Virus record (IMG/VR): IMGVR_UViG_3300029305_004519
Location: 13,541 to 77,540 of that record
Length of the DNA: 64,000 nt
From: a virus
Direction: 5' to 3' (one strand)
The translations under genes were made by a program, and so were the position numbers. The notes beneath the pieces were generated by a model. It searched no databases. It worked only from the letters and a program-made list of their open reading frames with translations, and was not told the DNA's origin. Shown here piece after piece: positions 4,140-62,958 of this stretch. The first letter of the stretch is position 1. Each line of letters begins with the position of its first letter.

Positions 4140-4340
4140 TTAAGCCAAAGTTAGTGGTCTATTATCCCACTCTTTTACTTGTAGTTTTTCAGTTGTTTGT
4201 AAAGTAATTTCTTTGTTACAGTAATTACATTTATAATATTCGATTTTATTACCTTGATATTCACCATAAGGGCCACCTCCTGTATGAGAGCCCTGGTAAT
4301 ATAAATATTGCAATTGTTGTTTGCATATAGGGCATTTCAT
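4140..4340 (-). CDS. Small zinc-ribbon protein
   Basis: CPICKQQ...CNYCNKE. 66 aa. Confidence 0.4.
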   Translation of the reverse strand: MKCPICKQQLQYLYYQGSHTGGGPYGEYQGNKIEYYKCNYCNKEITLQTTEKLQVKEWDNRPLTLA

Positions 4341-5452
4341 TATAATCTTACCCTTTCTTTAAATAATTTCATAAATGTTTCTGCGCCACAGTCGACGGGC
4401 GCATCTTTATATCCTAACATATCTCCCTTTTTATCAAAGATAAAAGAGATATTAACTAATTTCCTATATTTATTATGCAGCGCCGTTAGTTTCTTCGTCC
4501 ACTGCTTAAACTCTGCATCATTAGGTTCCTTAAATTGCTTATCAAAAGCAATCACTATCTCTATTGCTCCATACTGGCGCAAAAGGTCGACTTGATGCTG
4601 AATTAAGTTACTACCACAAGTTGCAACAGAGATGTCATTATCGGCACCAAACATTGATGCATATTTTAATGCGCTTTTCTCCCCCTCAAAGACTATTGCA
4701 GTTCTAAACTTACGGATGTTGTCTTTTGAGAAGTTTAAGTTATATAAAGCAAAACCTAATGGATGATTGTATTGAACGCCATTAAGAATCGCTGGTCGAT
4801 ACTTTCCGTATGCTTCTTCTTCTTTGATAAGCGTGCGTTCACGGATACCTATTAGTGCCCCATTTTCATCATAATGAGGTATCACAATACCTTGATTAAC
4901 TGGATCATAGCAGATACCGTGAGAATCCATTATCTCTTGAGTTATTCCTTCGTTAAGCCATGGCGTAATGCGCGGGCGTGGCAAATGCTGAAGAATATTT
5001 TCATCAAATTCTTTAAACTCAATTATTTTTTTATCATTACTGATGGAACTATTTTGTTGATAATTCTTTAAAATATCCCAATCACGAAGTTTTTGTTGAG
5101 AGTCTCCAAAATTTTCATCTTCAGATGAAGCTATGCTAAAGTAATGGGCAACATACCCTACGGCGCGCGATAGTGACCACTCTTCACCGCGCTGAAGCGC
5201 CCATTTGCGTGTTAGGTCAAAGATGTCGAATGAGTCACCACATTGAGTCCAACAATGGAACAACTTTGTATTCTCATAGTAGTAGAGTTTATGCGAACCA
5301 GTTCCGATTGGATTATGGCAGATGGTTCTTGAGATAAAGATTTCAGCACCATTTGAATCAAGTCGTGGTTCTCCTCCAAGCTCGGCAATATAATCGAATA
5401 CTTGTTGGAAGGTGAGTTGTTGCTTGATTGCGTCACTGTCATACCTCATTTT
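4340..5452 (-). CDS. DNA primase (DnaG-like; CHC2 zinc finger plus TOPRIM)
   Basis: CHNP...HKLYYYENTKLFHCWTQCG zinc finger; TOPRIM segment IVFEGEKSALK...VIAFDKQ. RBS GGGAGGAGAAAA upstream of the ATG at 5452. Confidence 0.8.
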   Translation of the reverse strand, partial: KMRYDSDAIKQQLTFQQVFDYIAELGGEPRLDSNGAEIFISRTICHNPIGTGSHKLYYYENTKLFHCWTQCGDSFDIFDLTRKWALQRGEEWSLSRAVGYVAHYFSIASSEDENFGDSQQKLRDWDILKNYQQNSSISNDKKIIEFKEFDENILQHLPRPRITPWLNEGITQEIMDSHGICYDPVNQGIVIPHYDENGALIGIRERTLIKEEEAYGKYRPAILNGVQYNHPLGFALYNLNFSKDNIRKFRTAIVFEGEKSALKYASMFGADNDISVATCGSNLIQHQVDLLRQYGAIEIVIAFDKQFKEPNDAEFKQWTKKLTALHNKYRKLVNISFIFDKKGDMLGYKDAPVDCGAETFMKLFKERVRL

Positions 5453-5894
5453 TCTCCTCCCTATATTTCGAACATATAAAACCAAAACCATCTATTCTAC
5501 CTTTTTTAAGCGTACAATAGTATGACCCTTGTTTAAAGGTGCAAAAAATACAATTTGGTTTGCAGAAAGTAAGATTACAAGCGTCCTCAAAAAAATTACA
5601 TTTTGCTCGCTGATCTCTTTTGTGATAATAATCGCAAGGCATATCTTTATAAAATTCTTTAAGAGGTTCAGGATGATTGAACAAACATATTGGACCTACC
5701 ATGGGATCACTGTCATCAAAATGAATACAATCATCTTGACAAGTTTTCTGCTCTCTAACAGGCTCAGTTTCTATATAACATCCGCATTTCCCATCGGCGT
5801 CAATATTAATCACATAGTTATCACATATTCCATTATAATTAAATAAGCAATTAGGATGCGCCTTACATTTTACTATTGTGTTCTTTTGATCCAT
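5439..5894 (-). CDS. Cysteine-rich hypothetical protein (about 23 Cys in 151 aa)
   Basis: ORF lying between the primase and helicase genes. No recognisable catalytic motif. Confidence 0.4.
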   Translation of the reverse strand: MDQKNTIVKCKAHPNCLFNYNGICDNYVINIDADGKCGCYIETEPVREQKTCQDDCIHFDDSDPMVGPICLFNHPEPLKEFYKDMPCDYYHKRDQRAKCNFFEDACNLTFCKPNCIFCTFKQGSYYCTLKKGRIDGFGFICSKYREEKNEV

Positions 5895-8324: not shown

Positions 8325-9308
8325 TTATTGAGCTGCATTTATCAAATCTCTAATTGCTGTAACAATTAAATCCAAAGCTTCTGTTTGTTCGCGAGAACAT
8401 TGGCTTACGCGCATTCCTTTGCCTAAATAGCTTTCGATTATCTGAGTAATACGAGGCTGCCAATAGGTTTTAAATGTTTCTTCGTCACTTTGACCTGAAA
8501 GATCTTGAATCATTGAATTAAACTGCATCATAAGTTCATCAAAATCAAGTTCCTTTGAAACGAATGTGTGCAAATTCGCGCCAGTGTCTGTGAAGTATTG
8601 AGTTCCATCCTCAGCCGCTTGTTTATCAATAGCATCACCTATTGCGTTTACAAGAGCATTATAGTTAAAATCAATATAATCAGGTGTATATTTAAATCTA
8701 CTTCCTGCCACGAAACGAGGAGTTCCGCGCATAAAGAGTTTTGTAGATTTTTCTCCAGACTCAGACTCAACAGTTCTCGCATATCCGATAATATCTGCCA
8801 TACGGTTTACGATATTACGAGGCTTATTGTCAAGAGTGGGAACGATCTGATTATACTCGTTACCATTCTGATCCTTAAAGGTTTTATCTTGCGCGTGAGA
8901 GATAATTACTAAGCCATATCCTAATTGAAGGATTGAACGAAGCGCGCCATCAAACTCTTGCGCTGCCATTTTGAAGCCCTTTCCGTAACCAATATCTCCA
9001 ATACTATCAACTCCAATAGATCCATCGGGTCGCTGCGCGTTTGCACAAATATACTTTTCACAATAGTCATAAGCAATATCTGCAGTATCGAGAATAATAG
9101 TTTCGAATCTAGCTTTAACTTGTTCATTCTTCAATTGGCGTAGAAATTTCTTAAACTCTGACCAGCTATTGATGGGTTGCGCCATGGCGCCGGGAATTGC
9201 ATTATATCCCTTTTCAAATGCTGCCAAAAGGTGATTAGGGAATTTAGTCGCGGTAGTAGTTTTACCGGTCTTTGCGTCTCCATAAAAGAAGACGCAATAA
9301 CCGCGCAT
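8325..9308 (-). CDS. RecA-like / AAA_24 (Sak4-like) ATPase
   Basis: FFYGDAKTGKTT Walker A; IILDTADIAYDYC Walker B. Confidence 0.6.
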   Translation of the reverse strand: MRGYCVFFYGDAKTGKTTTATKFPNHLLAAFEKGYNAIPGAMAQPINSWSEFKKFLRQLKNEQVKARFETIILDTADIAYDYCEKYICANAQRPDGSIGVDSIGDIGYGKGFKMAAQEFDGALRSILQLGYGLVIISHAQDKTFKDQNGNEYNQIVPTLDNKPRNIVNRMADIIGYARTVESESGEKSTKLFMRGTPRFVAGSRFKYTPDYIDFNYNALVNAIGDAIDKQAAEDGTQYFTDTGANLHTFVSKELDFDELMMQFNSMIQDLSGQSDEETFKTYWQPRITQIIESYLGKGMRVSQCSREQTEALDLIVTAIRDLINAAQ

Positions 9309-9378
9309 ATCACGAGAGACCTAATGGGGCTAAATATCAAGTAAGTTAAAATCTGCCATTTTTACTTACCTCACTTAA

Positions 9379-12362: not shown

Positions 12363-13556
12363 TTAGCTATTCCCGCGAGTTTTATTCAGGCCAAAATCAT
12401 ATGTTTGATAGAGGTCGATATAAAACTTCTCCTTTTCATTTAATTCATTGATACTACATTTTTCTAATACTTCAAAAGTAAAGTTATCAATACCTTTTTC
12501 TCTTGTGAATGCATAGAGTTGACTTGTTACAGGGGTGTCGATACCCAAGCTACATTTAACATGCGTTACCCAACGCTCTTTGATATCTTTAGCTTGTCCG
12601 ATGTATGATATGCCAGAGTCAATGTGGGTAATTTTATATATTCCACTTGCGCCCACCGCACCTACGCGCGCCGCAAGGTCATTGACTTTATCTCTATAGA
12701 ATGTAGACCATATAAGCATTCGCAAAGGTCTTGCCTCACGCAAATTATATTCAATGCTTTGAAGATATGCAACATCCCGTTTATCAGCTTCATTAATTTG
12801 AAGGGTATAAAATGTCGCTTGATTTTTAATTTCTTCTTCACGGAGTTGTGCCTCCATTGCGGCGGCCTTAGTTGCACGAATTTTTTCTAGCTCTTCACGA
12901 ATTGAATCTAAATCAGCGCGCATTGCCGCCTCTTCTTCTTGCAGCTCTTTAGACATTGATTGTTGCTTATCATAAAAGAGTTTTACAAGAATATCTAAAT
13001 CTTGACGCTGTTCTTCGATTAAACCATTTTCTCTAGCATCTAATTCTAACATTCTAGTGAAATAAAGCTCATCTAGCTTTGCGATGTCATTATTAAACTC
13101 CTGTTCTCGCTTTTGATATTCATAATCAAGAGTATCACAATATTGCTCAAATGAGGTGCGAGCAGCTGCCTTTAAACTACCTGACATCTCATCTATTGAG
13201 CGATTTAAAGTGGCGATTTGCGCCTCCACTCCTGCTTTTTCAATTTGCTTATTTTGAATTTCATTTATTAACAATAATTTCTATTGAGTTAATTGATTTA
13301 ATTCGTCATAAGAATTTTTTGTTTTTTTACAGTTCTCTTCATACTTTTGAGAAATTTCATTGTTAGATTTTATCAATAAGTCATTTTGAGCTTCTAGGCT
13401 TTTGCGAGTTGCATGTAATGACTAATTAAGCTCTTCCAGTTTCTAATTTTCTTCTGCTACATAGTGATTTGCTTTTATAGTTGTGGCTTTAGCCCATATT
13501 CCGTAAGCAAGGCCGCCTACGCCAAGAAGAATTGATATTACACATATGATTATCAT
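12363..13556 (-). CDS. GIY-YIG endonuclease with N-terminal TM/coiled-coil region and three in-frame TAG codons
   Basis: C-terminal GIYKITHIDSGISYIGQAKDIKERW (GIY-YIG). Reading up from the ORF-track start, the frame stays open through TAGs: MIIICVISILLGVGGLAYGIWAKATTIKANHYVAEEN[TAG]KLEELN[TAG]SLHATRKS...LNQLTQ[TAG]KLLLINEIQNK. Total 398 codons. Confidence 0.5.
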
Positions 13557-14185: not shown

Positions 14186-15019
14186 TCATTTCATTAACTC
14201 CAATAATTCTTCTTCAGTAATAATCGGAATGCCAAGTTCCTTTGCTTTAAGATTCTTTGATGATGTACTATCAATATCATTATTGACGAGATAATCAGTT
14301 TTTGAAGAGACCGATGATGTTACTTTACCACCTGCGGCGGTCACTGCTGCAGAAAGTTCATCTCGGTTTTTCCAGATGTGGACTCGACCTGTAACGCAAA
14401 AGGTTTTACCCTCAAGCGCATTTCCAGAATTTTCCAGCGCGCTTTCATTTGTTTTAAAGGTAATAATCCCCTTTTCTACAAGGCTATCTGCTTCCGTATA
14501 GTCAAAGCTTAAAATCGCATCTGCTTTCTCTGGTCCAATACCATCAAGCGACTCAAAATCAAAGCCATTCGCAACAGCATTTCTAAATTCTTCATAAGTT
14601 TCAAAAGTATTTGCAAGTTTCTGCGCATAGGTCTTACCTATAAGCGGAATGCTAATTGCGCTTAAATACTGTGCAAGAGTAGTCTCGCGTGCTTTCCATA
14701 TAGAGTCAATGAGCTTAGTTACGCTTTTAGGTCCGAAACCAGGCTTACTAGCCCAGAGATCAGCTACTTCACCGAGTGCGCAAATATCGCTTATAGAAGA
14801 TACCCAGCCCCAGTCGATAAGTTTCTCTAAAGTTGCTTTAGACAAGCCTTTAATATCAAGACCTTTCTTTGATACAAAATGTTCTAATTTGTTAATCAAT
14901 TTTCCACTGCAATCAGGATTATTACAAAATAATTCTTGTGTGCCGCTATCGCTCGTTTTGATAATTGTATTTCCGCCGCAAATAGGACAAGTCTTTGGTA
15001 TTTCAATCCATTCAATCAT
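14186..15019 (-). CDS. ligA: NAD-dependent DNA ligase, C-terminal half (Zn finger, HhH, BRCT)
   Basis: CPICGG...CNNPDC zinc finger, HhH region, then BRCT-like GKTFCVTGRV...ELGIPIITEEELLELMK. Own RBS and ATG. Confidence 0.8.
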   Translation of the reverse strand: MIEWIEIPKTCPICGGNTIIKTSDSGTQELFCNNPDCSGKLINKLEHFVSKKGLDIKGLSKATLEKLIDWGWVSSISDICALGEVADLWASKPGFGPKSVTKLIDSIWKARETTLAQYLSAISIPLIGKTYAQKLANTFETYEEFRNAVANGFDFESLDGIGPEKADAILSFDYTEADSLVEKGIITFKTNESALENSGNALEGKTFCVTGRVHIWKNRDELSAAVTAAGGKVTSSVSSKTDYLVNNDIDSTSSKNLKAKELGIPIITEEELLELMK

Positions 15020-15983
15020 ATTTTCTTTCCTTTTTTACAATAAATTTACTTTTATTAATATCTAAATCTTCTAAGGTTAATTGTTCAAGATGAGTATAAG
15101 GAATTCTAATTAATATAATATTATTATCCATACACCATTTATTCTTAAAAAGATCTCGAGCATTAGTTTTTTGAAATTGCTCTTCTGCGACTTTTTTAGA
15201 TATGCCTCCAAATTGTCGAGGAGTAAAATGCTGTTCCCCATCATATTCAATTAAATATTTATTTTCAACAAAAAAATCATAATATAAATGATAATTCGTA
15301 TCTGGGTAAACACAAGTATCAAAAGTTTTCTATTTTTCAAAAGTAATATTATTTTCTTTTAAAAGTTTTTCAATACAGTATTCTCCTTTTGATTTTCCTA
15401 AGCACCCACAAGAAGAAGTGTGACCTCGTCTAAGATTTAACGTTGAAACTTGGATTTTATTATGATCAGGACATGAGCATTCACATAGCCACATAATTCT
15501 ACCATTTGGATCACGTTCTTCCATTTTTTCTATAACTGTTAATTTACCAAAATGGGATCCAACAAGATTTAATGCTCTTTGTTCTCCCAATTTCTTCATG
15601 CGCTCTTTGGTAATACAACCACAAGATTTAGTACCTCCATTTTCTCCTTTTTTCAGCTAATCAGTTGGTACTTTAGTAATATTTCCACAATCACACTAAC
15701 ATTCCCATATCATACATCTTTTAGGGGTTTTTTCTCCAGTTGGACGTAAAGCCACTAATCGTCCGAATCTTTGCCCTGTTAAATCTTCAAATTTAGGTTC
15801 ATGTTTTTTACATCCACAAGAAGTTACTCGCTTTGCATTTAATTCTCCAGAAGTTACTTCTTTTTGATTTCCACACTAACATTGACAAAGCCAAACAACA
15901 GCTCCCCCTTTTCGTTTGTCTGTTTTTTCAATTACTGTTAAATAACCAAACTACTCTCCAATTAAATTTTTACAAGCTGGCAT
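15012..15983 (-). CDS. Homing endonuclease (Zn-ribbon repeats plus Vsr-like/DUF559 nuclease domain) with five in-frame TAG codons, inserted inside ligA
   Basis: RBS AAGGAGAAAAG and ATG at 15983. Frame open for 324 codons through TAGs at GE*FGY, QC*CGN, EC*CDC, TD*LKK and FEK*KTF. C-terminus has YDFFVENKYLIEYDGEQHF...ARDLFKNKW...ILIRIPY (DUF559/Vsr-like). Ends with TGA overlapping the ligA-C ATG. Confidence 0.5.
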
Positions 15984-17103
15984 CGTTTATCTTTTCTCCT
16001 TCTGCTACCTGCGGAATAATTTGATTAGCGAGGTAGACTTTAATTTTTTGTCCTTTATAAGGTCTACCTAATATTAAATTTAAAGTAGATAAATTATGCA
16101 AATTTGCCCTTGAAATTATATTTGAACCCGTATCTACATCTTTGTAAACTGCAACTGGAGTCAAGACACCAGTTCTACCCATAGACCATTCAATGTCTAA
16201 GAGTTCAGTCTCATATTCCTCGTCATAGAATTTATAAGCAAGACCGCCGCGAAAATGATGTTCTGTTCTACCTGCTGCTTGGTATTCTTTAATATTATCC
16301 CACTTAAAGACAATACCATCAATAGGATAGTCATTTAAAGAAGATAACCCTTTTATAGATGCTTCAATATATTTTTCAGTCTCACCTCCGCAAAATGGAA
16401 CACTAATAAAGCTTAAACTTTGCAAATGAGTAAGTTTGGCGCTTAAAGTAGTCATATCAATATAATTAAATCCTTGAATAATATCCCAAGCTACAAAAGT
16501 CAATTCTCTTTTAGCGCACTCATTACTATCCAAAAGTCGAATACTACCAGCTGCAAAGTTACGCGCATTAGCATGCTTGCCTTTGAATTGCTCAAAAGTA
16601 TCGAGATCGCAGATAACTTCTCCATCTACTACAAGTGTATCTTTATAAGGAATAATTTGTGGAATAGAGGGGAGCACTCGCGCATTATGGGTAATATCTT
16701 CGCCCTCAACGCCGTCTCCTCTTGTCTCGGCGCGAATTAGTCTACCTTCTTCATAAGTCAAACGACAAGTTAAACCGTCAAGCTTAAGCATTGCAATCCA
16801 TTCTTTATCACCGATAAAAGATTTAATTTCTTCAATATCTTTTGTCTTATCAAGTGAAAGCATAGGTTGATATTCATGCTTTACTTTTTTAAGCTCAGAT
16901 ACTACTTCATATCTAATCTTCTTAGTAGGTGAATTTTCAAATTCGATACTTGGAAACTCTTGTTCAAGAGCTTTAAGTTCCAAATAAGCTTCATCCCATT
17001 CTTTATCTGTTATCTTTGGAGTCCCAGCATCATATTGGTCTTGATGATAATTAAGATATTCAATTAATCTTCGCATTTTTTGCGCTACATCAAATTTCTC
17101 CAT
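15970..17103 (-). CDS. ligA: NAD-dependent DNA ligase, N-terminal half (adenylation plus OB domains)
   Basis: KxDG motif MLKLDGLTCRL and ...IIPQVAEG (OB end). Stops just before the Zn-finger region, which is encoded by 14186-15019. Confidence 0.8.
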   Translation of the reverse strand: MEKFDVAQKMRRLIEYLNYHQDQYDAGTPKITDKEWDEAYLELKALEQEFPSIEFENSPTKKIRYEVVSELKKVKHEYQPMLSLDKTKDIEEIKSFIGDKEWIAMLKLDGLTCRLTYEEGRLIRAETRGDGVEGEDITHNARVLPSIPQIIPYKDTLVVDGEVICDLDTFEQFKGKHANARNFAAGSIRLLDSNECAKRELTFVAWDIIQGFNYIDMTTLSAKLTHLQSLSFISVPFCGGETEKYIEASIKGLSSLNDYPIDGIVFKWDNIKEYQAAGRTEHHFRGGLAYKFYDEEYETELLDIEWSMGRTGVLTPVAVYKDVDTGSNIISRANLHNLSTLNLILGRPYKGQKIKVYLANQIIPQVAEGEKINDASL

Positions 17104-22467: not shown

Positions 22468-22543
22468 GCTTTAAGTATGGCTGGGAGTGTGGGATTCGAA
22501 CCCACGCATAACCGGGTTAGAGCCGGAGGCCTTAGCCGCTTGG
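22468..22543 (-). tRNA. Amber suppressor tRNA, anticodon CUA, tRNA-Gln-like body (tRNA-Sup(CUA), predicted Gln)
   Basis: Hand-folded canonical 76-nt cloverleaf: AGGGAGT/ACTCCCA acceptor (A1·A72 mismatch, G2-C71, G3-C70), G73, encoded CCA, D-arm GCCA/AGGC, anticodon loop C-U-C-U-A-A-C (U33, C34 U35 A36), T-arm GTGGG-TTCGAAT-CCCAC. Shares TCGCCAAGCGG...CCCAGCCA features with the tRNA-Gln(UUG) at 42331-42408. Confidence 0.8.
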
Positions 22544-22602
22544 CGAACTCCCTATTGATTACATATAAATTATAATCAAAATTTTTGAAAAAATCAATTA
22601 TT

Positions 22603-23121
22603 TTAATCAATAGGGAACCAGTTTTCACCATTCTTAGGTTCTTTAATTTCCCAGAACTCAATTAGATCTCTGTATTTACTCCAGTTTTGAGTTGCAATGG
22701 CGTCAGCTAATTCATTACCAAGCTCTCCTTTGTGACCACTACATTTGATGATCTCGGCATTAAAAAATGGACGAGAAATATAGCCCCAAATTGCTTTCAT
22801 TAAGTCTACATTTTCTACTTCTTGCTTTTTACTGTTGCGCCAACCATTAGACGCCCAAGTTCGCATCCAAGAGTTACAACTATTAACTACATAGGCGCTA
22901 TCAGAGTAAATGACGAATTGATCATACATATGAGACTCTACATATCCAAGAGCACAAAGCATTGCCTTAAGTTCCATGCGGTTATTGGTTACATAATCTT
23001 CAGTATCATGCTCTATAAACAAGATCTCAGTATCATTTTCGTTCATTATAACCATACCCCAGCCGCCTTTTCCTGGGTTGCCGCGAGAAGATCCATCAGT
23101 ATATATATAATATTTACTCAT
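22603..23121 (-). CDS. rnhA: Ribonuclease HI
   Basis: YTDGSS...GWG, NNRMEL, SDSAYVVN, GHKGELGNELADAIA motifs. Confidence 0.8.
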   Translation of the reverse strand: MSKYYIYTDGSSRGNPGKGGWGMVIMNENDTEILFIEHDTEDYVTNNRMELKAMLCALGYVESHMYDQFVIYSDSAYVVNSCNSWMRTWASNGWRNSKKQEVENVDLMKAIWGYISRPFFNAEIIKCSGHKGELGNELADAIATQNWSKYRDLIEFWEIKEPKNGENWFPID

Positions 23122-23737
23122 TGTTTTTCTCCTCTAACCATTTATCCAAATCAAATTCAGTTGTTTCTCTTTTATATACTGATTTAAGCCATACAGGACA
23201 AAGGTCAACATCAAGCAACCATTCTTTTTTTACTCGCAGTTCATCGTAAGCAAGATTAACGAAAACGCAAGAAATAAATTCTTTAATATGAGGATGCATG
23301 GCAAGTGGTTTAGAACATTTATTAAGCCACCATTTCCATTCTTTTTGATAGGTGAAATCCTTCCCCATATAGGCGCGCCCGGCGCCGAGATAGTCACAAA
23401 GCATTTCAACAGCATCTTTATAAGGCATTGGGACAGGATTCCCACCATTGTCAAAATTGTCAACCCAATATTCATAATGGTGAGTGTTTCTACCCTTATG
23501 ATGCATCCATGCCTTAGAGACGCCTTTATCTTCTTTACAAGCATCAATAGGGGATCTATTACCTTGATAATATCTTACAGACTCCCAAAACTCAATCGGA
23601 GAGAACTTAGACCAATCATGCATAAAACCACGCCAAGGAATTCCTGCCTTGCAGCAATAATAAAATACCCACCATTTGTGTTTACAAATTTTACCAAAGT
23701 GGCGAAAAGTGTTTTTAATAGTAATTCGAGGTGTCAT
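23114..23737 (-). CDS. Hypothetical protein (His/Trp-rich)
   Basis: 207-aa ORF; no confident motif. Confidence 0.35.
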   Translation of the reverse strand: MTPRITIKNTFRHFGKICKHKWWVFYYCCKAGIPWRGFMHDWSKFSPIEFWESVRYYQGNRSPIDACKEDKGVSKAWMHHKGRNTHHYEYWVDNFDNGGNPVPMPYKDAVEMLCDYLGAGRAYMGKDFTYQKEWKWWLNKCSKPLAMHPHIKEFISCVFVNLAYDELRVKKEWLLDVDLCPVWLKSVYKRETTEFDLDKWLEEKNNE

Positions 23738-24560: not shown

Positions 24561-25127
24561 TCAATCATCATTTTCTAACAGCTCCTCACATTTCTTCATT
24601 TCTGCTTTAACATCAGCAATTGCGTCATCAAGTAAAACAGGATATCCATCATGAGAGTCTACTCCAATATGATACATCCAAGGATCTCCCTTATAGAAGT
24701 TAGATGCTTGATGAGTATGCCCAAACAAATTAATCACGACCTGCCAAATTTCTTTTTCATCCAGATTATGAGTAATAATAGGATAGTGAGAGAGATAGAA
24801 ATTTAGTTTCTTATATTTTAGTCTTGCACAAAGCTGAACATCCCAGCCCATATCTCGATAAGCCTGTTCGCGCTTAGCAGTATCGTGATTTCCAAGACAT
24901 ACATGGATTTTGCCTTTGAGTTGTTTAAGAAGCGCCAAACCTCCCTCAATGTCGCCTAATACCAAATCTCCAAGAATCCATACATCATCTTCATCAGACA
25001 CTACAGAATTGAACTTTTCAATCTGCTTCATATTCATTTCATTTACATCTGCATACCCTCTGGCGCCCCAGATAAACTCACGGTCATGCCCCAGATGCAG
25101 GTCGCTAGTGATCCAAATCTTGCTCAT
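24561..25127 (-). CDS. Calcineurin-like metallophosphoesterase
   Basis: SDLHLGH, GDLV, GNHD and GHTH motifs. Confidence 0.7.
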   Translation of the reverse strand: MSKIWITSDLHLGHDREFIWGARGYADVNEMNMKQIEKFNSVVSDEDDVWILGDLVLGDIEGGLALLKQLKGKIHVCLGNHDTAKREQAYRDMGWDVQLCARLKYKKLNFYLSHYPIITHNLDEKEIWQVVINLFGHTHQASNFYKGDPWMYHIGVDSHDGYPVLLDDAIADVKAEMKKCEELLENDD

Positions 25128-25627
25128 TTTTTCTCCTCCATATTTCCATTTTCATCAACAATATAAATTTTATTATAGGTAAAAATACCTTCATGCCACT
25201 TAGGTTCTTTAAGTGCACGATACATTTTTGCAATTGCTTCAGGCGGAACATAGGCACGTCCGGCGCGCTGTGCATTGCGCTCTTGCGCAACCTCAAGAGG
25301 AACCTTAAAATAAATTACCTCAATCTCATTAGGAATAATATCCAATGCTTTAAGCAACTTCAAGCGAGCGCCATGGTTAAGATGAGTTGCGTCTGCATAA
25401 ACAGTTTCTCCAGACTTTAAAAGAGATTCAATGCTTGCTACATAAGTTTCCCAAACCTCATCTTCCTTTGAGAAATAATTATCATTCTCTTGAAGTAAAG
25501 CAAAACGAATTGCATCTCTTGAGACAATAAATTCATCTATCTTTTTATTTTGGTTAAGCCAAGTGCTTTTCCCTGAACCCGGAATACCAACCATCAATAT
25601 CAGCTTACCATTTATCTTATATTCCAT
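25124..25627 (-). CDS. P-loop polynucleotide kinase-like protein
   Basis: LMVGIPGSGKST Walker A; AAA_33/T4 PNK-kinase-like. Translationally coupled to the phosphoesterase. Confidence 0.55.
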   Translation of the reverse strand: MEYKINGKLILMVGIPGSGKSTWLNQNKKIDEFIVSRDAIRFALLQENDNYFSKEDEVWETYVASIESLLKSGETVYADATHLNHGARLKLLKALDIIPNEIEVIYFKVPLEVAQERNAQRAGRAYVPPEAIAKMYRALKEPKWHEGIFTYNKIYIVDENGNMEEKK

Positions 25628-25977
25628 TTAATTATTACCTCTTTTACCATGAAATATACACCCAAATTTGTATATGGTTATCGACAACTTTTTGTTGTGT
25701 TTTAACATCAAAACCAAGTGTATTTATACCCAATTCCATAATGGCATTTTCAAAATCAGCCACTGGAATATTATAATCATCTAAAACAGTTTTGCTCCAA
25801 AAATCAGAGATTGAAGAAGATCCCATTGCAATAGCCCTATGAATCATGGGTTCTAAACAAGTAACCCATTCACTATTGGCAAAATTTTTAGCTTCGTTTA
25901 ACTGTGTTTCACGAATTTTATTAGTCTGTTTTCTTGCTTCTATTGCTGTAATCATTTCTTTTTTCTCCTTTTTATTT

Positions 25978-26022
25978 CTTTATAATTTATTATATCATAT
26001 TTTTTTAATAAAATCAAAAAAG
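25978..26022 (-). promoter_or_regulatory. Conserved phage promoter (middle/late class)
   Basis: Plus-strand ctttataatttattatatcatatttttttaataaaatcaa. Confidence 0.6.
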
Positions 26023-26037
26023 AAAAAGGAGAGTAAA

Positions 26038-26346
26038 TTACTCTCCTTTAATGTAGGTATCTACTTTTTCATTGTCTTGAATTAATCCTTCAAGAGTGTC
26101 TAAAGCATCATCAACTAATGTCTTGAAAGTTTCAAAAGACATAAATTTACTGATGATTGGGAATTTAGTTAAAAATGCATCATATACTTGACGCAATTTT
26201 AATTCGCCAGTTCCAGTTCCTAATAACTTTTCTGCAGTTGCAACTGCATAAAGTAGCCAATTTTTGAGATTTTTACGCTCTCTGTAGGCAAGCAATGCGA
26301 CTCCTCCAATAAGAAGTACTAATGCTACGATCCATAAGTATTCCAT
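26038..26346 (-). CDS. Small membrane protein (N-terminal TM helix)
   Basis: MEYLWIVALVLLIGGVALLAY... Confidence 0.4.
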   Translation of the reverse strand: MEYLWIVALVLLIGGVALLAYRERKNLKNWLLYAVATAEKLLGTGTGELKLRQVYDAFLTKFPIISKFMSFETFKTLVDDALDTLEGLIQDNEKVDTYIKGE

Positions 26347-26364
26347 GGTTCATCCTCCTTTTTA

Positions 26365-27144
26365 TTACATAATATACCAAGTTGAAACCGTATTCTTTAT
26401 TAATTTAATAGTTGCAGCGGTTCCTTTTGTATATGTCACAGTTAAGTTTGTTAATTCTTCTCCATCTTGTAATGCAGCGGTAAATGAGGTGCCATTTAAA
26501 GTTATTGCACCACCCTCGGTAATAGCTAAGGCAGGATTGCTATTATTAGTAGTTTTCGTTTCAATTACTCCATCTTTAATAATAGTAACGGTAGTGAGAT
26601 TAGAGGAAGCTGTTGGAGGAGTATATGCTTCTCCTTCCATAGTAATGATACATAACTCTTTATTTTCATTTGGAAAAGCATCAAATGTAAATGTAAATAT
26701 TGAAGGATCTCCGGTTGGAGCCATAGAAAGATTTAAAGTTGTTTGTAATTTTGCTTCAGGAATAGTAATAGTTGCACTATGATCTACGCCTTCATCATCT
26801 CTAATTAAGGTTGTTGCATTTACCGTATAATAAGCTGCAAATGAAGTAGTTTTAATTTTAAAAATTGTCTATGATGAGCCAGACGTTACTTCTGCTCCAG
26901 TTAGAGCATGGAATGACTCCATTGTAAGCAATGCGTCTTCTACTGTAAAAGTAAGCGTTTTTTCACCTTCCCAAGCAATTAAACGAGAATTACCTTTACC
27001 TCCTTGAGCATATACTGTTGAGCTTGTTGATTCAATTGTACTCATTTTTGCAGTATCGATAACAAAAGAGCTGGGACCTTCTCCAGAACCAACTTTTTTA
27101 GTAAAAGTTAAATCACAAACTTCACGAATACCAAATCTATTCAT
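26365..27144 (-). CDS. Beta-rich structural-like protein with one in-frame TAG
   Basis: ORF-track fragments 26869-27144 and 26365-26724 are in the same frame and joined through a TAG at 26869-26871 (...EVTSGSS[TAG]TIFKIKTTSF...MAPTGDPSIF...). 260 codons. Confidence 0.5.
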
Positions 27145-27243
27145 AAAAATATTTCCTTTTCTTTCAAAATAAAAATATAAGCGGCAAGCTTCTATATTAT
27201 ATTGAAAATTAAGGAGATATAATTAATTACTTTTGACCAATTT

Positions 27244-28434
27244 TTAAGAATGGTATTTCAAGAGGAACTCATTACTTACAGCTTTAAAGCTCAATTCGCC
27301 ATCTTCTGAACGGAATACTAAGCCTTCACGCATACCCCCATCAATCTTTGACGGCGCGGATGCGGCAAGAGTCAACACCTCTTCACAAGTAGCAGGAAGT
27401 TCTAGGCGCCCAAGCACGGGTACAGTAGGCAATCCATAGGTATCACAAATGATCTTCATATCAATAGGATTCAGGCGTTCAACCCTACCATCCTTATAAC
27501 CATAAATAACATTAAAGATAGCCAAATCACGATTCTTCATTCCATAATCGCGCTTTTGCACAGAGGCACCGTAGATTTCGCCTTGAATGGTAAGAAATTC
27601 CAATTCCCTATCACAATTGTCCATCCATTCCATCCAACGAGCCATAACATTTTCCATATCATACTTTTCCGCCATTTCAACATAAATGTTGGTGTCATAA
27701 AAACACTTCTTATCTGGCTTATCAAATACGACATTTCGAGAGCAAACATAGAACTCTCTCTTTTTGCCTTTGCCGCGCAAGGTAAAGGTTGAAGAACTAC
27801 CATCAATTTTTTCAGTCAAGATCCAAGTTTTACGCTCTGAAGTATTGAAAAGATAAGGTAGATTTTGAACGCGCTCTTCATCAGTCTTTTTTACCCAAGC
27901 CGGCCAGCCATTTTTCTTATCTTTCTTTTTACCAAAGAAGAAGAACATTAGGCGGCGACCCCATTCGCGCTTCATTAACCAACGTGCCCACTTCTTTTTA
28001 AAGATGTCAGGTCTGCGCTGAGCCATTCTCTTATACTTGTCAGGTCCAGATCCTTTACGCTCATTATCAGCAGCTTCAGAATAAGTTACACCAAGCAACT
28101 CGGTGCAATCAACATTAGTTTCATTAGGAATTTTTACATCAAAGGCATTGATAGGAAGCGCCAAGCCTTGACTAATAACTCCAAACTTAGAAAGTTTCAT
28201 ACTCTTAACCTTAAACTTTTTAGGTGCCAAAAATGCACACCATTCCTTGTCTTCGGGTAGTTTTGAGTCAATCTCAAAATATACGCAAAGGTCTCCTGCT
28301 TTAAACTCACCGATCTTAGCGATACAAGTCCATCCGCCAATCCCAACAAGCTCTATATTATCAGCACCTTCAATAGGTCTTACCCAGTCTATACGAGTAG
28401 TATAAGCCAGTGCTCTTTTATCATTTATCAGCAT
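27244..28434 (-). CDS. ATP-dependent RNA ligase (Rnl family nucleotidyltransferase)
   Basis: Covalent nucleotidyltransferase motif I, TEKIDGSS (KxDG). 396 aa. Confidence 0.55.
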   Translation of the reverse strand: MLINDKRALAYTTRIDWVRPIEGADNIELVGIGGWTCIAKIGEFKAGDLCVYFEIDSKLPEDKEWCAFLAPKKFKVKSMKLSKFGVISQGLALPINAFDVKIPNETNVDCTELLGVTYSEAADNERKGSGPDKYKRMAQRRPDIFKKKWARWLMKREWGRRLMFFFFGKKKDKKNGWPAWVKKTDEERVQNLPYLFNTSERKTWILTEKIDGSSSTFTLRGKGKKREFYVCSRNVVFDKPDKKCFYDTNIYVEMAEKYDMENVMARWMEWMDNCDRELEFLTIQGEIYGASVQKRDYGMKNRDLAIFNVIYGYKDGRVERLNPIDMKIICDTYGLPTVPVLGRLELPATCEEVLTLAASAPSKIDGGMREGLVFRSEDGELSFKAVSNEFLLKYHS

Positions 28435-28559: not shown

Positions 28560-29480
28560 TTATACCTCCAAACATTCTCTCAGCAATCCTGCGCGTAGCG
28601 GATTGCGCAGTTTGCGCAAGGCCTTTTCTTCAATCTGTCTAATGCGCTCTTTAGATAGCTTATATTCATTTCCAATTTCTTCCAAAGTCTGAGCTTTATG
28701 ATTATTCAAACCATAGCGACGTGTCAGCACATCTGCTTCTCTATTGTCAAGAGTTGATAATACTTGTTGAATACGCTTAGAGACTTCTTCTTTGAAAATG
28801 TCTTCAATTGGAGATTCATTATTTTCATCTGCTACTAAATCGCCAATAGTTGCATCATCTTCATCATTGATACTTTGATCAATAGAGATTGGGTCTTTAA
28901 CAATAGCTCGCAACTCTTTAATTTTCTTTTCTTCAAGTCCCATATGATTTGCAAGCTCTTGTGTGGTAGGTTCTCTATTCAGTACTTGACAGAGTTCATT
29001 AGTGGCACGACTCAGTTTACTAAGTTGCTCAATAACATGCATAGGTACTCGAATGGCTCGCGATTGCTCAACGACAACTTTAGAGATACTTTGTTTAATC
29101 CACCATGTAGCGTAGGTAGAAAATTTATAACCTAAAGTATAATCCCACTTATCTACGGCGCGCATTAATCCAATATTTCCCTCTTGAATTAAATCAAGAA
29201 ATGGCATATTGGTACGATGTAAATATTTTTTTGCAATACTTACTACCAAACGCAAATTTGCTTCAATCAGTTTATTCCTTGCTTCAATACTTCCATTTGC
29301 AATTTGGGCGCCTAAAGCTTGCTCTTCTTCGTAGGAGAGCAAAGGAATTTTACTAATTGAGTTCATATATGCTTTTGTTGCGTCTGGTAAAAAACCCATA
29401 TTATCAAAATCTACATCAATACTATTTTCTTCCTCAAGAATCAAATCTTCCGCTTCTAAAATCATTACATTATTTTCCAT
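28560..29480 (-). CDS. Sigma-70 family RNA polymerase sigma factor (regions 1.2, 2, 3 and 4 all present)
   Basis: ...[14 protein letters not shown]...[19 protein letters not shown]...[10 protein letters not shown] (region 2) ... [28 protein letters not shown] (region 4.2 HTH). Confidence 0.8.
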
Positions 29481-40358: not shown

Positions 40359-40443
40359 ATGGAGCTGAAGGTCCGATTCGAACGGACGCGGACTCTCGTC
40401 TCTCGCTTACAAGGCGAGTGCAATCGGCCACTATGCGACTTCA
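40359..40443 (-). tRNA. Class II tRNA (long variable arm). The canonical fold gives anticodon UGU, which is atypical.
   Basis: Acceptor GCTGAAG/CTTCAGC, U73, D-arm GCA/TGC with an 11-nt loop, anticodon stem CTCGC/GCGAG with loop CUUGUAA, a 14-nt variable arm, T-arm GTCCG-TTCGAAT-CGGAC. Directly abuts tRNA-Gly. Confidence 0.45.
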
Positions 40444-41228
40444 GCATATTAAGTTTTCAATAATCGCATAAGAAAATATATAATCACTTTAACGAGCCTT
40501 CACTCTACATCGTTTCTGAAGTGCGTTATTAACATATGTTCACGGGAGGCTGAGCAATGGGTAGCGATCCCACGCTTCTCCAATGGTTCTCTCTATCTTG
40601 CCCCGATAGGAAAGCAAGTAAATTAAACTACCACACCCTCGATCAATACTAAGGGAACTTTCACCGAGCTTCAGCATTAATTCTAAAATACCTGTTTTCA
40701 TCAAATTTGAAGCTATCTTTTATGCCCGATACGGCTACTCGCACCAGCCAAATCTGTTATAGTTTGTTACCAAACATCAACGGGAACGCTTATTTTTGAG
40801 ATACCTAGTTGATTATTCGCTTCATAACGGTTTCTCACGCCGCCAACTTTAGGTGGTATGCATCACTGCAGGGACTCTTCTCGCGCCAGATTCCTGACTG
40901 TTGTTTACGCTAAATCATCAATATGCACCATTATCCGCAACCTTTGTCAGGCATACTCGTTTATTCAGTATATTCACGAGTTTTATTTACTTTAGAGCAG
41001 TATCCCACTCTGTTTCTTTCCCCGCGGATCTGTCCTAGCCATCATGCAAGATGTCTGCACTAGGATGTTAAAGGTTTATATATTTTCTTATGCAATTATC
41101 AATGAACTTTTTTCTTTTGATTACTTAATCATTATATCATAAATTTTTTAAGTTTTCAAGAGAGAGGTGAGGCTTTAGGTCAGCCGACCGCACATCTGTT
41201 GATTGCTGGAACTTTTGCTCTTCCAAAA

Positions 41229-42571: not shown

Positions 42572-42658
42572 TGGTGAGCGTGGCGGGAATCGAACCCGCG
42601 ATGGACATAATGTCGAGGGATTAAAAGTCCCTTGTACTCGCCGCTGTACTACACGCTC
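42572..42658 (-). tRNA. Class II tRNA (long variable arm). The canonical fold gives anticodon UUU, which is atypical.
   Basis: Acceptor GAGCGTG/CACGCTC, A73, D-arm GTAC-AGCGGCGA-GTAC, anticodon stem AGGGA/TCCCT with loop CUUUUAA, a 16-nt variable arm, T-arm GCGGG-TTCGATT-CCCGC. Confidence 0.45.
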
Positions 42659-47927: not shown

Positions 47928-48195
47928 GTCGACCCTGAGGATTCTCTACAAGCCCCTCAGGTAGCTCTCGTGTTTTTCGTACTGTTCCGAGCAACGCTCT
48001 TTTATCATGCTTCCTCGCAACCGCTAAGAGTAAACGCGCTGCGCCATTCATCATCAAATAATCTCCGCGCCTCACTCCATTGGGCGCGCAGCTGTAAACG
48101 GTCACTCCACCAACCGTTAATTTTAGAGTGGGTTTTTTCTATTAATTCGCGTCATACCCACTAACGCTTATAGAGAGGGACTTAACGGACTCGAA

Positions 48196-48268
48196 CCGTT
48201 GCCATCATATTTAAAAATTATGAGCTCTACCATCTGAGCTAAGGTCCCAGAATCGGAGTATTATAATC
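48196..48268 (-). tRNA. tRNA-Lys(UUU), no encoded CCA
   Basis: Acceptor GGGACCT/AAGTCCC, D-arm GCTC-AGATGGTA-GAGC, anticodon stem CATAA/ATATG with loop UUUUUAA, T-arm AACGG-TTCGAGT-CCGTT. Confidence 0.6.
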
Positions 48269-51377: not shown

Positions 51378-52124
51378 TTAGATAAAATTCCCTTCTCTAA
51401 AATAAATTGATTGCATAATAAGTTCTTCAAGTATACGATCTACTCCGGGCTTATAAGAACCCTTACCCGTATAAAAATCAAGATCATTTAAATAGTCTTC
51501 AAGAACACCTAAAAGCAACTTTACAAAAGAGGGGTCAGGTGTCTTATACCTGTGTTCGCGTACATCATCTGCCATCCAGATACAGTCTTTATAAGACTCT
51601 TTAGTATCAAGAATCTTCTCAAGAGTGCGCACAATACGCACACCATTCATAATCTTCTTTGGATCTTCTGGATTTTGTTTAATGGTATGAATAGCTTGAT
51701 GCACCATAGAATGAATGGCTTGACGAAAATCATAACGCGCTACCTTTTCTCTATCTGCAAGAGGGAATTGTTCTGCCCAAAACTCCTTATATAAAGGATT
51801 AATAATGCAATAATTAGTAAACATTATTTCAACAAAATTAATGTTCTGCTTTTTCCAATTTGCAACCATATGCATAATGCTCATACACTCACAGACTTCA
51901 AAGCCCTCTTCAGTATGAATATGAAGGTGCTTAACTTCAAAAGGCTTAATAGCAAGATTGTAAATTGAAGGAATAAGAATACATTTAGTATCTACATCAG
52001 AATCTGGAGTGTTGGTGTTATAGTTCCAGCTACCATACAGAAATACGCCAAGAACTGCTTCTTTGCCAAAATGCTCTATAGCGCGTGTATAATGTTTATT
52101 TACTCTTGCCATTACATCAGTCAT
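51378..52124 (-). CDS. Pol-beta-superfamily nucleotidyltransferase domain protein
   Basis: LYGSWNYNTNTPDSDVDT (GS...DxD). True start MTDVMARV with RBS GAGAGGGAAT. 248 aa. Confidence 0.5.
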   Translation of the reverse strand: MTDVMARVNKHYTRAIEHFGKEAVLGVFLYGSWNYNTNTPDSDVDTKCILIPSIYNLAIKPFEVKHLHIHTEEGFEVCECMSIMHMVANWKKQNINFVEIMFTNYCIINPLYKEFWAEQFPLADREKVARYDFRQAIHSMVHQAIHTIKQNPEDPKKIMNGVRIVRTLEKILDTKESYKDCIWMADDVREHRYKTPDPSFVKLLLGVLEDYLNDLDFYTGKGSYKPGVDRILEELIMQSIYFREGNFI

Positions 52125-52194
52125 TTTTATTCCCTCTCTTTCTTTTAACATATATATTTTATCATATTTTTTTGATAAAATCAAAAGAGAAATA

Positions 52195-61309: not shown

Positions 61310-61342
61310 TATATTATACCACATTGTGCGCTAAATGTCAAG
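61310..61342 (-). promoter_or_regulatory. Early-class promoter. Minus strand reads TTGACA-N17(TGg)-TATAAT.
   Basis: Reverse complement is CCTCTTGACATTTAGCGCACAATGTGGTATAATATAAG, a sigma-70 consensus, flanked by the AT-rich aaaaatttttcaaaaaattttt. Confidence 0.65.
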
Positions 61343-61385
61343 AGGTTTGGGAAAAATTTTTCAAAAAATTTTTGGGGTTGGGGGC

Positions 61386-61808
61386 TTATGCCCCCTCTCC
61401 CTCAACCTCGGTATCCTCGCCATACGCAAGCGCATAATAGGATACCTTCTTCACCTTGGTGTTCACAAAGTCCTTGGGATTCTTGGTGAAAATTGCGGTA
61501 ATCATCTGCGAGGACACCTTATGTCCGTCTGCCTTGACATAGGCTTGGATGCGGTCATCTTTGAGAATGTCTCCCACGGTCATGCCGACCTCTTCCTTGC
61601 ACTCGGCAAGAATATCCTTAACGATTTCGGCAACCGCCGCCGCATCTTTCTGTGCAGGGGTTTCCTTACCGCTCTTGGACGATTTGCGCGACAAGAGTTC
61701 AATCTCATGCGCCATAACATCTGCCCACTCGGTTTTGCCCTGTTCGGTGAGGAACGCCATAATGCCCTCAAAATGTTCTCTTTTGGTAACTCTGTTCTTT
61801 TCTGCCAT
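61386..61808 (-). CDS. Hypothetical protein (paralog family member)
   Basis: 140-aa ORF. Confidence 0.45.
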   Translation of the reverse strand: MAEKNRVTKREHFEGIMAFLTEQGKTEWADVMAHEIELLSRKSSKSGKETPAQKDAAAVAEIVKDILAECKEEVGMTVGDILKDDRIQAYVKADGHKVSSQMITAIFTKNPKDFVNTKVKKVSYYALAYGEDTEVEGEGA

Positions 61809-61865
61809 GATTCTCTACCTCATTCTTTCTTTTAGTCAGTAGGGATTGGCTTTCCCTTACTGCTC

Positions 61866-61899
61866 TTATATTATACCACATTTCGTGGGTTTTGTCAAG
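61866..61899 (-). promoter_or_regulatory. Early-class promoter (TTGACA-N17-TATAAT on the minus strand)
   Basis: Plus-strand cttatattataccacatttcgtgggttttgtcaagg. Confidence 0.65.
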
Positions 61900-61995
61900 G
61901 GGTTTTTTGAAATTTCTTCAAAAATTTTCGTGGAAAGGGAAACGAAATAAGTTTTTACGCGCGCCTTCGTCCTTGCTTTCCCCCCTTGATTACAT

Positions 61996-62030
61996 TAATA
62001 TTATACCATAAAAATAAAAATTTGTCAATA
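61996..62030 (-). promoter_or_regulatory. Early-class promoter
   Basis: Plus-strand taatattataccataaaaataaaaatttgtcaatagg. Confidence 0.55.
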
Positions 62031-62158
62031 GGTTTTGGGAAATCTAAATGCACAAAGTTTGGGCAGTTTTTGGTAGGAAAATTGTGCAACTTGCACAGAA
62101 ACGCACAAATCGGCTCAAACGCGACCGCGCTTGAGCCGGCAAAAAGAAAACAAGGTGT

Positions 62159-62368
62159 TTAAACACCTTGTTCAACTTTCTTAATTCCGAAAACTTTGCA
62201 CACCTTGCAAAAGGCTTTGCGAGTTTTCTTTTCTGCTTTTTTGATTTCCTTCATAGGAATTTCAAAATCTTCGTGTAATTCAAACTCTGCTTTGTAACAT
62301 TCTTTTACATAAATTTCTGCGATAGTGTCCATAAGTTTGTCTGCGCTTGATTGCTTAATACTTTTCAT
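62159..62368 (-). CDS. Hypothetical small protein
   Basis: 69-aa ORF. Confidence 0.4.
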   Translation of the reverse strand: MKSIKQSSADKLMDTIAEIYVKECYKAEFELHEDFEIPMKEIKKAEKKTRKAFCKVCKVFGIKKVEQGV

Positions 62369-62424
62369 TTTTTTCCTTCCTTTTAGTTTTATGTATGGGG
62401 CGGTTTAAACCGCCCCTTGTGCGC

Positions 62425-62808: not shown

Positions 62809-62878
62809 AATTTTTTTCCTCTCTCGCTATTGGTTGCGACCCTTTATTTTTATATTCAGTAGGTTTTCCCTTACTGCT

Positions 62879-62913: not shown

Positions 62914-62958
62914 AGGTTTTTGAAAAATTTTTTTATTTTTTTTATGGGGAAAGAGGTT

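Follow-up and report, generated by a model that had tools for sequence, protein, structure and literature searches.

Genes and signals of the locus

Within a 64,000-nucleotide stretch of the IMG/VR virus record IMGVR_UViG_3300029305_004519 (positions 13,541 to 77,540 of that record, hereafter the window, in whose coordinates all positions are given), three neighbouring genes encode a P-loop kinase of the Pnkp type, a calcineurin-type metallophosphoesterase (MPE) and an ATP-dependent RNA ligase of the Rnl5 family. It is proposed, with a probability of about 0.7, that these genes of a large, amber-recoded gut phage specify a pathway of RNA end healing and end sealing, in which broken RNA would be phosphorylated at its 5′ end, dephosphorylated at its 3′ end and sealed. 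The three open reading frames (ORFs) named in a preliminary description of the DNA are found at the positions given there, on the minus strand and with complete catalytic motifs; the minus strand carries every gene of the 22-31 kb region. The genes and signals of the module are the following.

24561-25127, minus strand: calcineurin-type MPE of the aq_1665-like clade, 188 aa, stand-alone; proposed 3′ end-healing enzyme
25124-25627, minus strand: Pnkp-type P-loop kinase, 167 aa, stand-alone; proposed 5′-OH polynucleotide kinase
25644-25955, minus strand: orf103, 103 aa; first gene of the kinase–MPE transcription unit
26017-25989, minus strand: predicted promoter of the orf103–kinase–MPE unit, TTGATT-N17-TG-TATAAT
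26049-26025, minus strand: intrinsic-terminator-like hairpin with an 11-bp stem and T-run, which ends the upstream sigma–ligase unit
26365-27144, minus strand: recoded virion gene (259 aa) between ligase and kinase, with an in-frame TAG at 26869-26871
27244-28434, minus strand: Rnl5-family ATP-dependent RNA ligase, 396 aa; proposed end-sealing enzyme
28560-29480, minus strand: phage-encoded RpoD-like sigma factor, which heads the ligase unit
29552-29524, minus strand: predicted promoter of the sigma–ligase unit, of the same class as the kinase–MPE promoter

The kinase stop codon and the MPE start codon overlap as ATGA, and a GGAGGAG ribosome-binding site lies within the 3′ end of the kinase gene, an arrangement that makes the translational coupling of the pair, as first described, plausible. 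Both genes follow the promoter at 26017-25989 and orf103, which has no Pfam or PHROG match and is not conserved across related loci. The ligase gene belongs to the preceding unit, in which the sigma factor, a 45-aa ORF, the ligase, the 259-aa virion gene and orf102 are followed by the terminator at 26049-26025; its ATG is preceded by AAGGAG and shares sequence with the 3′ end of the 45-aa ORF, which itself follows the sigma gene. The ligase and the healing genes thus occupy separate units with one promoter class in common, and do not form one operon. The distance between them is 1,616 nt, measured upstream from the kinase start and spanning three other genes, rather than the 2 kb given initially. 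None of the kinase, MPE and ligase genes contains an in-frame TAG.

The kinase

The kinase contains the P-loop GIPGSGKST (residues 14-22) and matches Pfam AAA_33 (E = 6.2e-21) and phrog_505, 'polynucleotide kinase' (E = 2.3e-26). Its closest solved relatives in the PDB are the kinase domain of CthPnkp (4gp7, E = 6.6e-8), T4 Pnk (1ly1, E = 7.9e-8) and Capnocytophaga Pnkp1 (4xrp, E = 7.2e-6), in keeping with the kinship to Pnkp asserted at the outset. The active site is intact. Residues G14, K20, S21 and T22 are present, the conserved D38-x-x-R41 aligns with the SSDFCR segment of CthPnk, and R117, R121 and R124 align with its ERNKNRTDR segment. From the literature on CthPnk and T4 Pnk, we take D38-x-x-R41 to be the catalytic Asp-x-x-Arg that contacts the 5′-OH nucleotide, and R117, R121 and R124 to be the lid arginines.

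The protein consists of the kinase domain only, and no HAD (DxDxT) phosphatase domain was found in it or in neighbouring genes. Among its 755 homologues in the database, nearly all of the best 120 stand alone, with 140-180 aa (217 aa at most), and none of these 120 has a second domain. The tRNA-dependent kinase PSTK scores about equal to Pnk (PDB E = 1e-7; model, 47 bits). As the kinase has 167 residues and matches only positions 1-136 of the 249 in the PSTK model, the C-terminal tRNA-binding domain of PSTK is absent. A polynucleotide is the probable substrate, and it is the gene context only that favours it.

The Rnl5 ligase

The preliminary description had called the third protein an RNA ligase, and the search results agree, pointing neither to a DNA ligase nor to a capping enzyme. 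The protein matches the OB domain PF21189 (E = 7.8e-22, residues 10-95), PF09414 RNA_ligase (E = 4.1e-20) and phrog_968, 'RNA ligase' (E = 2.5e-65), values well outside what chance would give. Naegleria gruberi NgrRnl (5cot) matches across both the OB and the nucleotidyltransferase domains with E = 8.6e-38, the OB domain aligning to NgrRnl residues 8-124, whereas T4 Rnl2 reaches merely E = 0.035. Motif I, K209-I-D-G (residues 209-212), is invariant in 12 phage homologues together with S232-R-N (motif Ia), Q284-G-E286 (III), E370-G (IV) and K384 (V), and all of these align to the NgrRnl motifs.

The motif V residue K384 sits 12 residues before the end of the 396-aa protein, so that a C-terminal appendage is absent and the architecture is that of Rnl5. 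The NCBIfam model TIGR02306 (RNA_lig_DRB0094) gives 106.9 bits (E = 9.3e-31) against a cutoff of 151.15, below its equivalog threshold, in part because a 57-residue linker splits the match. By predicted architecture, the ligase is a member of Rnl5 and not an equivalog of DraRnl. The linker, KYKRMAQRRPDIFKKKWARWLMKREWGRRLMFFFFGKKKDKK, occupies residues 121-177 (window positions about 27904-28074) between the OB and nucleotidyltransferase domains; it is basic and partly hydrophobic, with 20 Lys or Arg residues, and is conserved in the Rnl5 proteins of gut phages but absent from NgrRnl and Pseudomonas phage phiPMW. It is conjectured that this conserved basic linker might adapt phage Rnl5 to structured RNA.

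The window holds a separate NAD-dependent DNA ligase, which argues against a replicative role for the Rnl5 gene. In Microbacterium phage Cece, an Rnl5 gene adjoins a tRNA array and an RtcB gene.

The metallophosphoesterase

The MPE matches Metallophos_2 (E = 5.8e-11) and phrog_547, 'phosphoesterase' (E = 2.4e-40), and contains the motifs SDLHLGH (residues 8-14), GD (53-54), GNHD (79-82), H114 and GHTH (136-139). In an alignment of 20 homologues, residues D9, H11, D54, N80, H81, H114, H137 and H139 are invariant and make up a complete dinuclear metal site; H14-D15-R16 and H153/D157/H159 are invariant residues specific to the clade. Homologues number 1,422 in the database, and the phrog_547 family has members in 897 cultured-phage records.

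No solved structure was matched by the single MPE sequence in a phmmer search of the PDB. A profile search of the PDB returned Aquifex aq_1665 (1xm7) as its best match, with E = 1.7e-7. An AlphaFold (AF2) model with a predicted local distance difference test score (pLDDT) of 90.6 also gave 1xm7 as the best Foldseek match (E = 4.7e-8; template-modelling score 0.68; 19% identity), followed by MJ0936, LpxH, PptH, Rv0805 and SbcD. On these profile and model comparisons, the MPE is a member of the calcineurin-like superfamily that falls outside the lambda/CthPnkp clade, for which healing of RNA 3′ ends is established. Its substrate assignment therefore comes from gene context, on which it is proposed as a candidate 2′,3′-cyclic phosphodiesterase or 3′-phosphatase.

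Conserved linkage and gene replacement

Related loci were compared over flanks of ±10 kb, and a scan of IMG/VR added 80 loci on contigs of mostly 100-200 kb. In 82 of 86 related loci, the MPE gene is immediately preceded by the kinase gene, on the same strand and with a usual spacing of -16, -4, -1 or 0 nt, and one locus (L029) encodes kinase and MPE as a single fused ORF of 369 aa. Where the upstream flank reaches 9 kb or more (64 loci), 49 loci have an RNA ligase gene in it, likewise on the same strand. As many of these loci are near-duplicates, the MPEs were clustered at 70% identity; among the 45 clusters, the kinase is present in 34, the ligase in 28 and both in 26. By way of comparison, only 330 of 50,697 deposited phage records contain an Rnl5 homologue. 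When the scan was made from the Rnl5 side, 62 IMG/VR loci with at least 8 kb of downstream sequence comprised 38 with kinase and MPE, 16 with the kinase only, 3 with the MPE only and 5 with neither.

Gene order is conserved on contigs with close homologues of the MPE. L001 (MPE 79% identical; 142-kb contig) has Rnl5, one gene, the kinase, the MPE, DUF5662, RNase H and gyrase B/A. The order in L003 (61%) is sigma factor, Rnl1-type ligase, small ORF, kinase, small ORF, MPE, DUF5662 and RNase H, and L005 (52%) has an adjacent kinase–MPE pair with an Rnl5-like ligase 7 kb upstream.

Two of the three components can be replaced. The position next to the sigma gene on its 3′ side is taken by Rnl5 in the window and by Rnl1 in the relatives L003 and L008, whose sigma factors are 58-63% identical to that of the window and whose vault-like protein is 68% identical; the L003 ligase matches PF09511 (E = 5.3e-18) and T4 Rnl1 (2c5u, E = 1e-7). 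An Rnl1 gene also lies directly upstream of the MPE gene in L036. The phosphoesterase is replaced in 14 loci that lack the MPE and have instead a kinase, about 300 aa long, whose C-terminal part is an HD domain, and these cover most of the 16 kinase-only loci. The fusions match PF01966, with a classic HD motif near residue 208; their kinase halves match CthPnk (E = 9.4e-12), and they are often encoded immediately after the ligase.

Beyond these loci, the cultured Aeromonas phage 2L372X, which has a Gram-negative host, carries contiguous genes for an MPE of the family, an Rnl1-type ligase and an AAA_33 protein; the last aligns weakly to the window kinase (E = 0.003), and its identity as a polynucleotide kinase is uncertain. 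MPE homologues of Herelleviridae adjoin a 3′ exoribonuclease instead. No close DNA relatives of the window were found among deposited phages, with short patches of similarity in the sigma gene and the virion gene only.

The conserved linkage, one fusion and two non-orthologous replacements support the view that the three genes belong together, and the two replacements fit a pathway of 5′ kinase, 2′,3′/3′-phosphoesterase and ligase. The trio thus stands as the linked set that had been described initially, although not as a single operon, given its two units with the terminator and the virion gene between them.

A proposed pathway of RNA healing and sealing

In the proposed pathway, the kinase would phosphorylate the 5′-OH of a broken RNA, the MPE would strip a 2′,3′-cyclic phosphate or 3′-phosphate to yield a 3′-OH, and the Rnl5 ligase would join the 3′-OH and 5′-PO4 ends via a Lys209-AMP intermediate. 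Anticodon nucleases, toxin RNases and CRISPR-associated RNases leave ends that need such healing. The likely purpose would be to reverse damage by host metal-independent ribonucleases of these kinds, and repair would sustain translation during infection. The three enzymes may act jointly on one molecule, which could be a tRNA or another structured RNA. A tRNA nicked in its anticodon loop is a plausible target, because Rnl1 can take the Rnl5 slot and because Rnl5 adjoins a tRNA array and RtcB in Cece. Any protection of the phage's own tRNAs and suppressor by the module is speculative.

The healing-and-sealing logic of the preliminary description is retained here, and its analogy with Pnkp/Hen1 extends to that logic only, since no Hen1-like methyltransferase was found in Pfam scans of the tested 22.6-28.4 kb neighbours and ten further window genes, and since the MPE is not of the lambda/CthPnkp clade.

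Several observations weigh against this pathway. The kinase is about as similar to PSTK and KTI12 as to Pnk, and a virion gene separates the ligase from the kinase–MPE pair, which lies in a different transcription unit. The Rnl5 enzymes NgrRnl and DraRnl seal nicks in duplexes, are feeble on single-stranded RNA and have physiological substrates described as unknown; nick sealing needs ribonucleotides at the 3′-OH end, with a 5′-PO4 partner (PMC4408790, PMC5397189). DraRnl also shows a DNA-repair phenotype (PMC5397189). Neither lambda phosphatase nor the CthPnkp phosphatase appeared in the PDB profile search with the MPE (E ≤ 10) or among the 50 Foldseek matches listed, and the nearest structure, aq_1665, is a protein without assigned function from a clade without biochemistry. 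The near-duplicates among the related loci mean that raw linkage counts overstate independence. Finally, distant MPE homologues (at most 44% identity) in contigs of metagenome-assembled genomes of gut Bacillota have neither a kinase nor a ligase partner, which indicates that the kinase/ligase link is specific to one MPE clade.

Alternative explanations

Repair at the level of DNA is an unlikely account of the three genes, and the best placed of the alternatives. The enzymes would then act while the phage replicates or recombines, healing and sealing nicks in DNA or RNA–DNA hybrids, for example nicks with ribonucleotide 3′ ends, or 3′-phosphate/5′-OH breaks made by host nucleases. Rnl5 needs only an RNA 3′-OH in vitro, accepting DNA as the 5′-PO4 strand and as the template (PMC5397189, PMC4408790), and deletion of DraRnl slows genome reassembly after irradiation (PMC5397189). 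Healing enzymes of the T4 type and HD-Pnk act on DNA ends too, HD-Pnk being a DNA/RNA end-healing enzyme (PMC6097658), and the genes have neighbours of a replication type, namely RNase H, gyrase B/A, DnaB and the NAD-dependent ligase. However, that last enzyme already provides the phage with a dedicated DNA ligase, and in close relatives the same slot is occupied by Rnl1, a ligase said to be tailored to broken RNA stem-loops (PMC4408790). Rnl5 genes also lie beside tRNA arrays and RtcB in other phages, and are 140-fold enriched in phages that bear tRNA ribozymes (PMC10879173).

That enrichment would suit a role in programmed RNA maturation rather than damage repair, such as removal of the 2′,3′-cyclic phosphate left by hepatitis delta virus (HDV)-like theta ribozymes on tRNA 3′ ends, or the rejoining of programmed cleavage products of tRNA or structured RNA. 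Kienbeck et al. (2024) reported that 54.5% of the phage genomes with theta ribozymes encode an 'RNA ligase, DRB0094 family' (Rnl5), the 140-fold enrichment cited above, and did not address the cyclic-phosphate end (PMC10879173). The window phage is of the same general kind, being amber-recoded, tRNA-rich and from the gut. Maturation is nonetheless improbable here. Rfam scans, run at gathering thresholds over the entire window and with relaxed E-values over the tRNA regions, detected no HDV-like ribozyme; CCA is genome-encoded on nearly every tRNA, and a terminator hairpin follows the suppressor tRNA. The extra length of the Lys and Thr tRNAs lies in long variable arms rather than in introns, and a 5′ kinase and a ligase would be needless for such maturation.

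Least probable of all is that the three are unlinked neighbours, with the MPE degrading phosphodiesters among small molecules, for instance the cyclic nucleotides of immune signalling, the kinase being PSTK/KTI12-like (acting on a nucleotide or aminoacyl-tRNA) and the ligase working alone: small-substrate phosphodiesterases (MJ0936, Rv0805, LpxH and GpdQ) are among the structural neighbours of the MPE, a role against nucleotide signals has been suggested for calcineurin-like phosphodiesterases of phages (PMC7824862), both PSTK (47 bits) and KTI12 are matched by the kinase, the ligase has its own transcription unit and distant MPE homologues occur without either partner, but kinase and MPE genes are nearly always adjacent or overlapping and once fused, the ligase accompanies them in most lineages, an HD domain that takes the place of the MPE is joined to the same kinase beside the same ligase, the kinase lacks the PSTK tRNA-binding domain, and PADLOC defence-system models gave no match for seven neighbouring proteins.

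Promoters, recoding, tRNAs and other features of the window

The promoter class shared by the two units of the healing-and-sealing module, TTGATTTTnnTAAAAAAAtaTGaTATAAT, is very regular and has about 13 minus-strand copies through the window. A second class, ACCTnTTGACAAA...TGTGGTATAATATAAG, is clustered elsewhere, and the two sharply defined classes are probably different temporal classes.

55537, 49442, 48879, 44566, 39086, 33283, 30673, 29552, 26017, 22597, 17161 and 1667, minus strand: copies of promoter class 1, TTGATTTTnnTAAAAAAAtaTGaTATAAT
61313-63752, minus strand: second promoter class, ACCTnTTGACAAA...TGTGGTATAATATAAG, 5 copies clustered at 61.3-63.8 kb
22478-22553, minus strand: amber-suppressor tRNA-CUA, with its own promoter of the TTGATTTTnnTAAAAAAAtaTGaTATAAT class (22597-22569) and terminator hairpin

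The virion gene at 26365-27144 is one ORF broken by a TAG and, when read through, encodes phrog_2729, 'virion structural protein' (E = 1.7e-42). In the homologue from L008, a TAG aligns with a Gln of the window protein, which suggests that TAG is probably read as Gln (code 15). Other long ORFs have in-frame TAGs at 15012-15983 (5), 12363-13556 (3), 4340-5803 (3) and 8325-9359 (2). Amber-recoded gut phages of this type are likely to infect Bacillota.

ARAGORN predicts 25 tRNAs in the window, one of them the CUA suppressor, and Rfam adds one more and another below threshold; the suppressor of the preliminary description is thus upheld, and its count of roughly 28 tRNAs is slightly too high. A tRNA-Lys(UUU) at 42572-42658 (minus strand) has 87 nt and a long variable arm that is unusual for this isoacceptor, next to a normal-length tRNA-Lys(UUU) elsewhere, at 48175-48248; the tRNA-Thr(UGU) at 40360-40445 (minus strand) is also long, at 86 nt. 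A full-length ROOL RNA (RF03087) lies inside the tRNA array at 40474-41088 (minus strand), with 175 bits against a gathering score of 99. A link to theta/HDV-like ribozymes was considered for this window and set aside, as there is no Rfam match and CCA is encoded, with the limit that a minimal theta motif may be outside Rfam. Splicing of tRNA was likewise rejected, since the long Lys and Thr tRNAs have no introns and Rfam found no group I intron.

Next to the tRNA array, at 51378-52184 (minus strand), is a 268-aa Pol-beta-type nucleotidyltransferase (phrog_388, E = 1e-13; NTP_transf_2, E = 0.0014, below cutoff), which has no match to the RlaP family PF10127 and could be a tRNA 3′-end (CCA-type) or RNA-repair nucleotidyltransferase. 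The NAD-dependent DNA ligase (14186-17103, minus strand) is split into an adenylation and OB part at 15970-17103 and an HhH and BRCT part at 14186-15019. Between the halves lies the ORF with five in-frame TAGs (15012-15983), which encodes a 323-aa HNH/homing endonuclease (phrog_374, E = 1.7e-52); an intron, an intein and a true split gene are candidate explanations. DUF5662 (23114-23737) has an invariant H...HD...HH...HH...D pattern and returned nothing significant from Foldseek; that it is a second, HD-type phosphoesterase is an unproven lead. An 855-aa protein is encoded at 30716-33283 (minus strand), and its L001 homologue has Pfam matches to the major-vault-protein shoulder and Vault_3. 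This vault-like protein recurs in related phages with an SPFH/flotillin protein (37476-39014, minus strand) and a nicotinate phosphoribosyltransferase (35348-36607, minus strand).

Implications

In T4, RNA repair is a textbook example of counter-defence by a phage. The reading of the three genes as an RNA repair pathway does not overturn current understanding, and would extend a known strategy to new enzyme families and hosts. A more ambitious claim, doubtful when taken jointly with its consequences, is that Rnl5 and the tRNA-repair ligase Rnl1 can stand in for each other in this lineage, and that Rnl5 is always partnered by a Pnk kinase and either an aq_1665-type MPE or an HD domain. If this were true, phage Rnl5 enzymes, whose role is described as uncharted, would be repair ligases for structured RNA, probably tRNA, and in tRNA-rich amber-recoded gut phages would keep the translation machinery intact, the phages' own suppressor tRNA included. 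The phrog_547 MPEs, or at least their kinase-linked clade, would likewise be a previously unrecognised class of RNA 3′-end-healing phosphoesterase.

The gene context gives a concrete, testable assignment for these two families, Rnl5 and the aq_1665-like MPE, and suggests that abundant uncultured amber-recoded phages of gut Bacillota routinely meet host defences that cleave RNA. The separate 3′-phosphoesterase, separate 5′-kinase and nick-sealing RNA ligase are possible reagents.

Comparison with known systems

Iyer et al. (2021) reported that polynucleotide kinases and phosphoesterases of jumbo phages track ATP-dependent RNA ligases, and that the phosphatase is calcineurin-like or HD-like in a few (PMC7824862); the kind of system is thus already known. 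The set of a stand-alone Pnk kinase, an aq_1665-type MPE and Rnl5 is uncharacterised so far, as are its alternation with kinase–HD fusions and Rnl1 and its prevalence in amber-recoded gut phages, although Burroughs and Aravind (2016) may already have catalogued the combination.

T4 Pnkp and Rnl1, which act against the PrrC anticodon nuclease, carry out the same three chemical steps with phage-encoded enzymes throughout. The kinase domains are homologous (1ly1, E = 7.9e-8), and close relatives of the window phage use Rnl1 instead of Rnl5. The T4 kinase is, however, fused to a C-terminal HAD (DxDxT) phosphatase, whereas the window has a stand-alone kinase and a separate binuclear MPE. The window ligase also differs from T4 Rnl1, being an Rnl5 with an N-terminal OB domain and without the C-terminal tRNA-specificity domain.

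The Clostridium thermocellum Pnkp/Hen1 and Capnocytophaga gingivalis Pnkp1-Rnl-Hen1 systems likewise combine a kinase, a metallophosphoesterase and a ligase, and provide the closest solved kinases; the ligase of the latter system is a separate polypeptide too (PMC4411300). Bacterial Pnkp unites the kinase and a lambda-phosphatase-like MPE in one protein, CthPnkp also containing a fused Rnl4, and has Hen1 as its partner, whereas the window divides the functions among three proteins. The window kinase scores 42.8 bits against a cutoff of 750 for bacter_Pnkp (NCBIfam TIGR04075), and does not have the trifunctional Pnkp architecture.

The HD-Pnk and ligase cluster of Runella slithyformis also pairs a Pnk-type kinase with a metal-dependent 2′,3′-phosphoesterase and adjoins an ATP-dependent ligase (PMC6097658). 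The window phosphoesterase is instead an MPE and is unfused, and the fusions in related phages run from kinase to HD, the reverse of the Runella order. Aquifex aeolicus aq_1665 (1xm7), the best match to the MPE by profile and by fold, is of similar size (about 190 aa), but shares 19% identity with it, and the phage clade has the extra invariant residues H14-D15-R16 and H153/D157/H159.

DraRnl of Deinococcus radiodurans and NgrRnl share with the window ligase an OB domain followed by a nucleotidyltransferase domain, the lack of a C-terminal appendage and all catalytic motifs. NgrRnl is without the 57-residue linker of the window ligase, and the window Rnl5 is genomically tied to end-healing enzymes.

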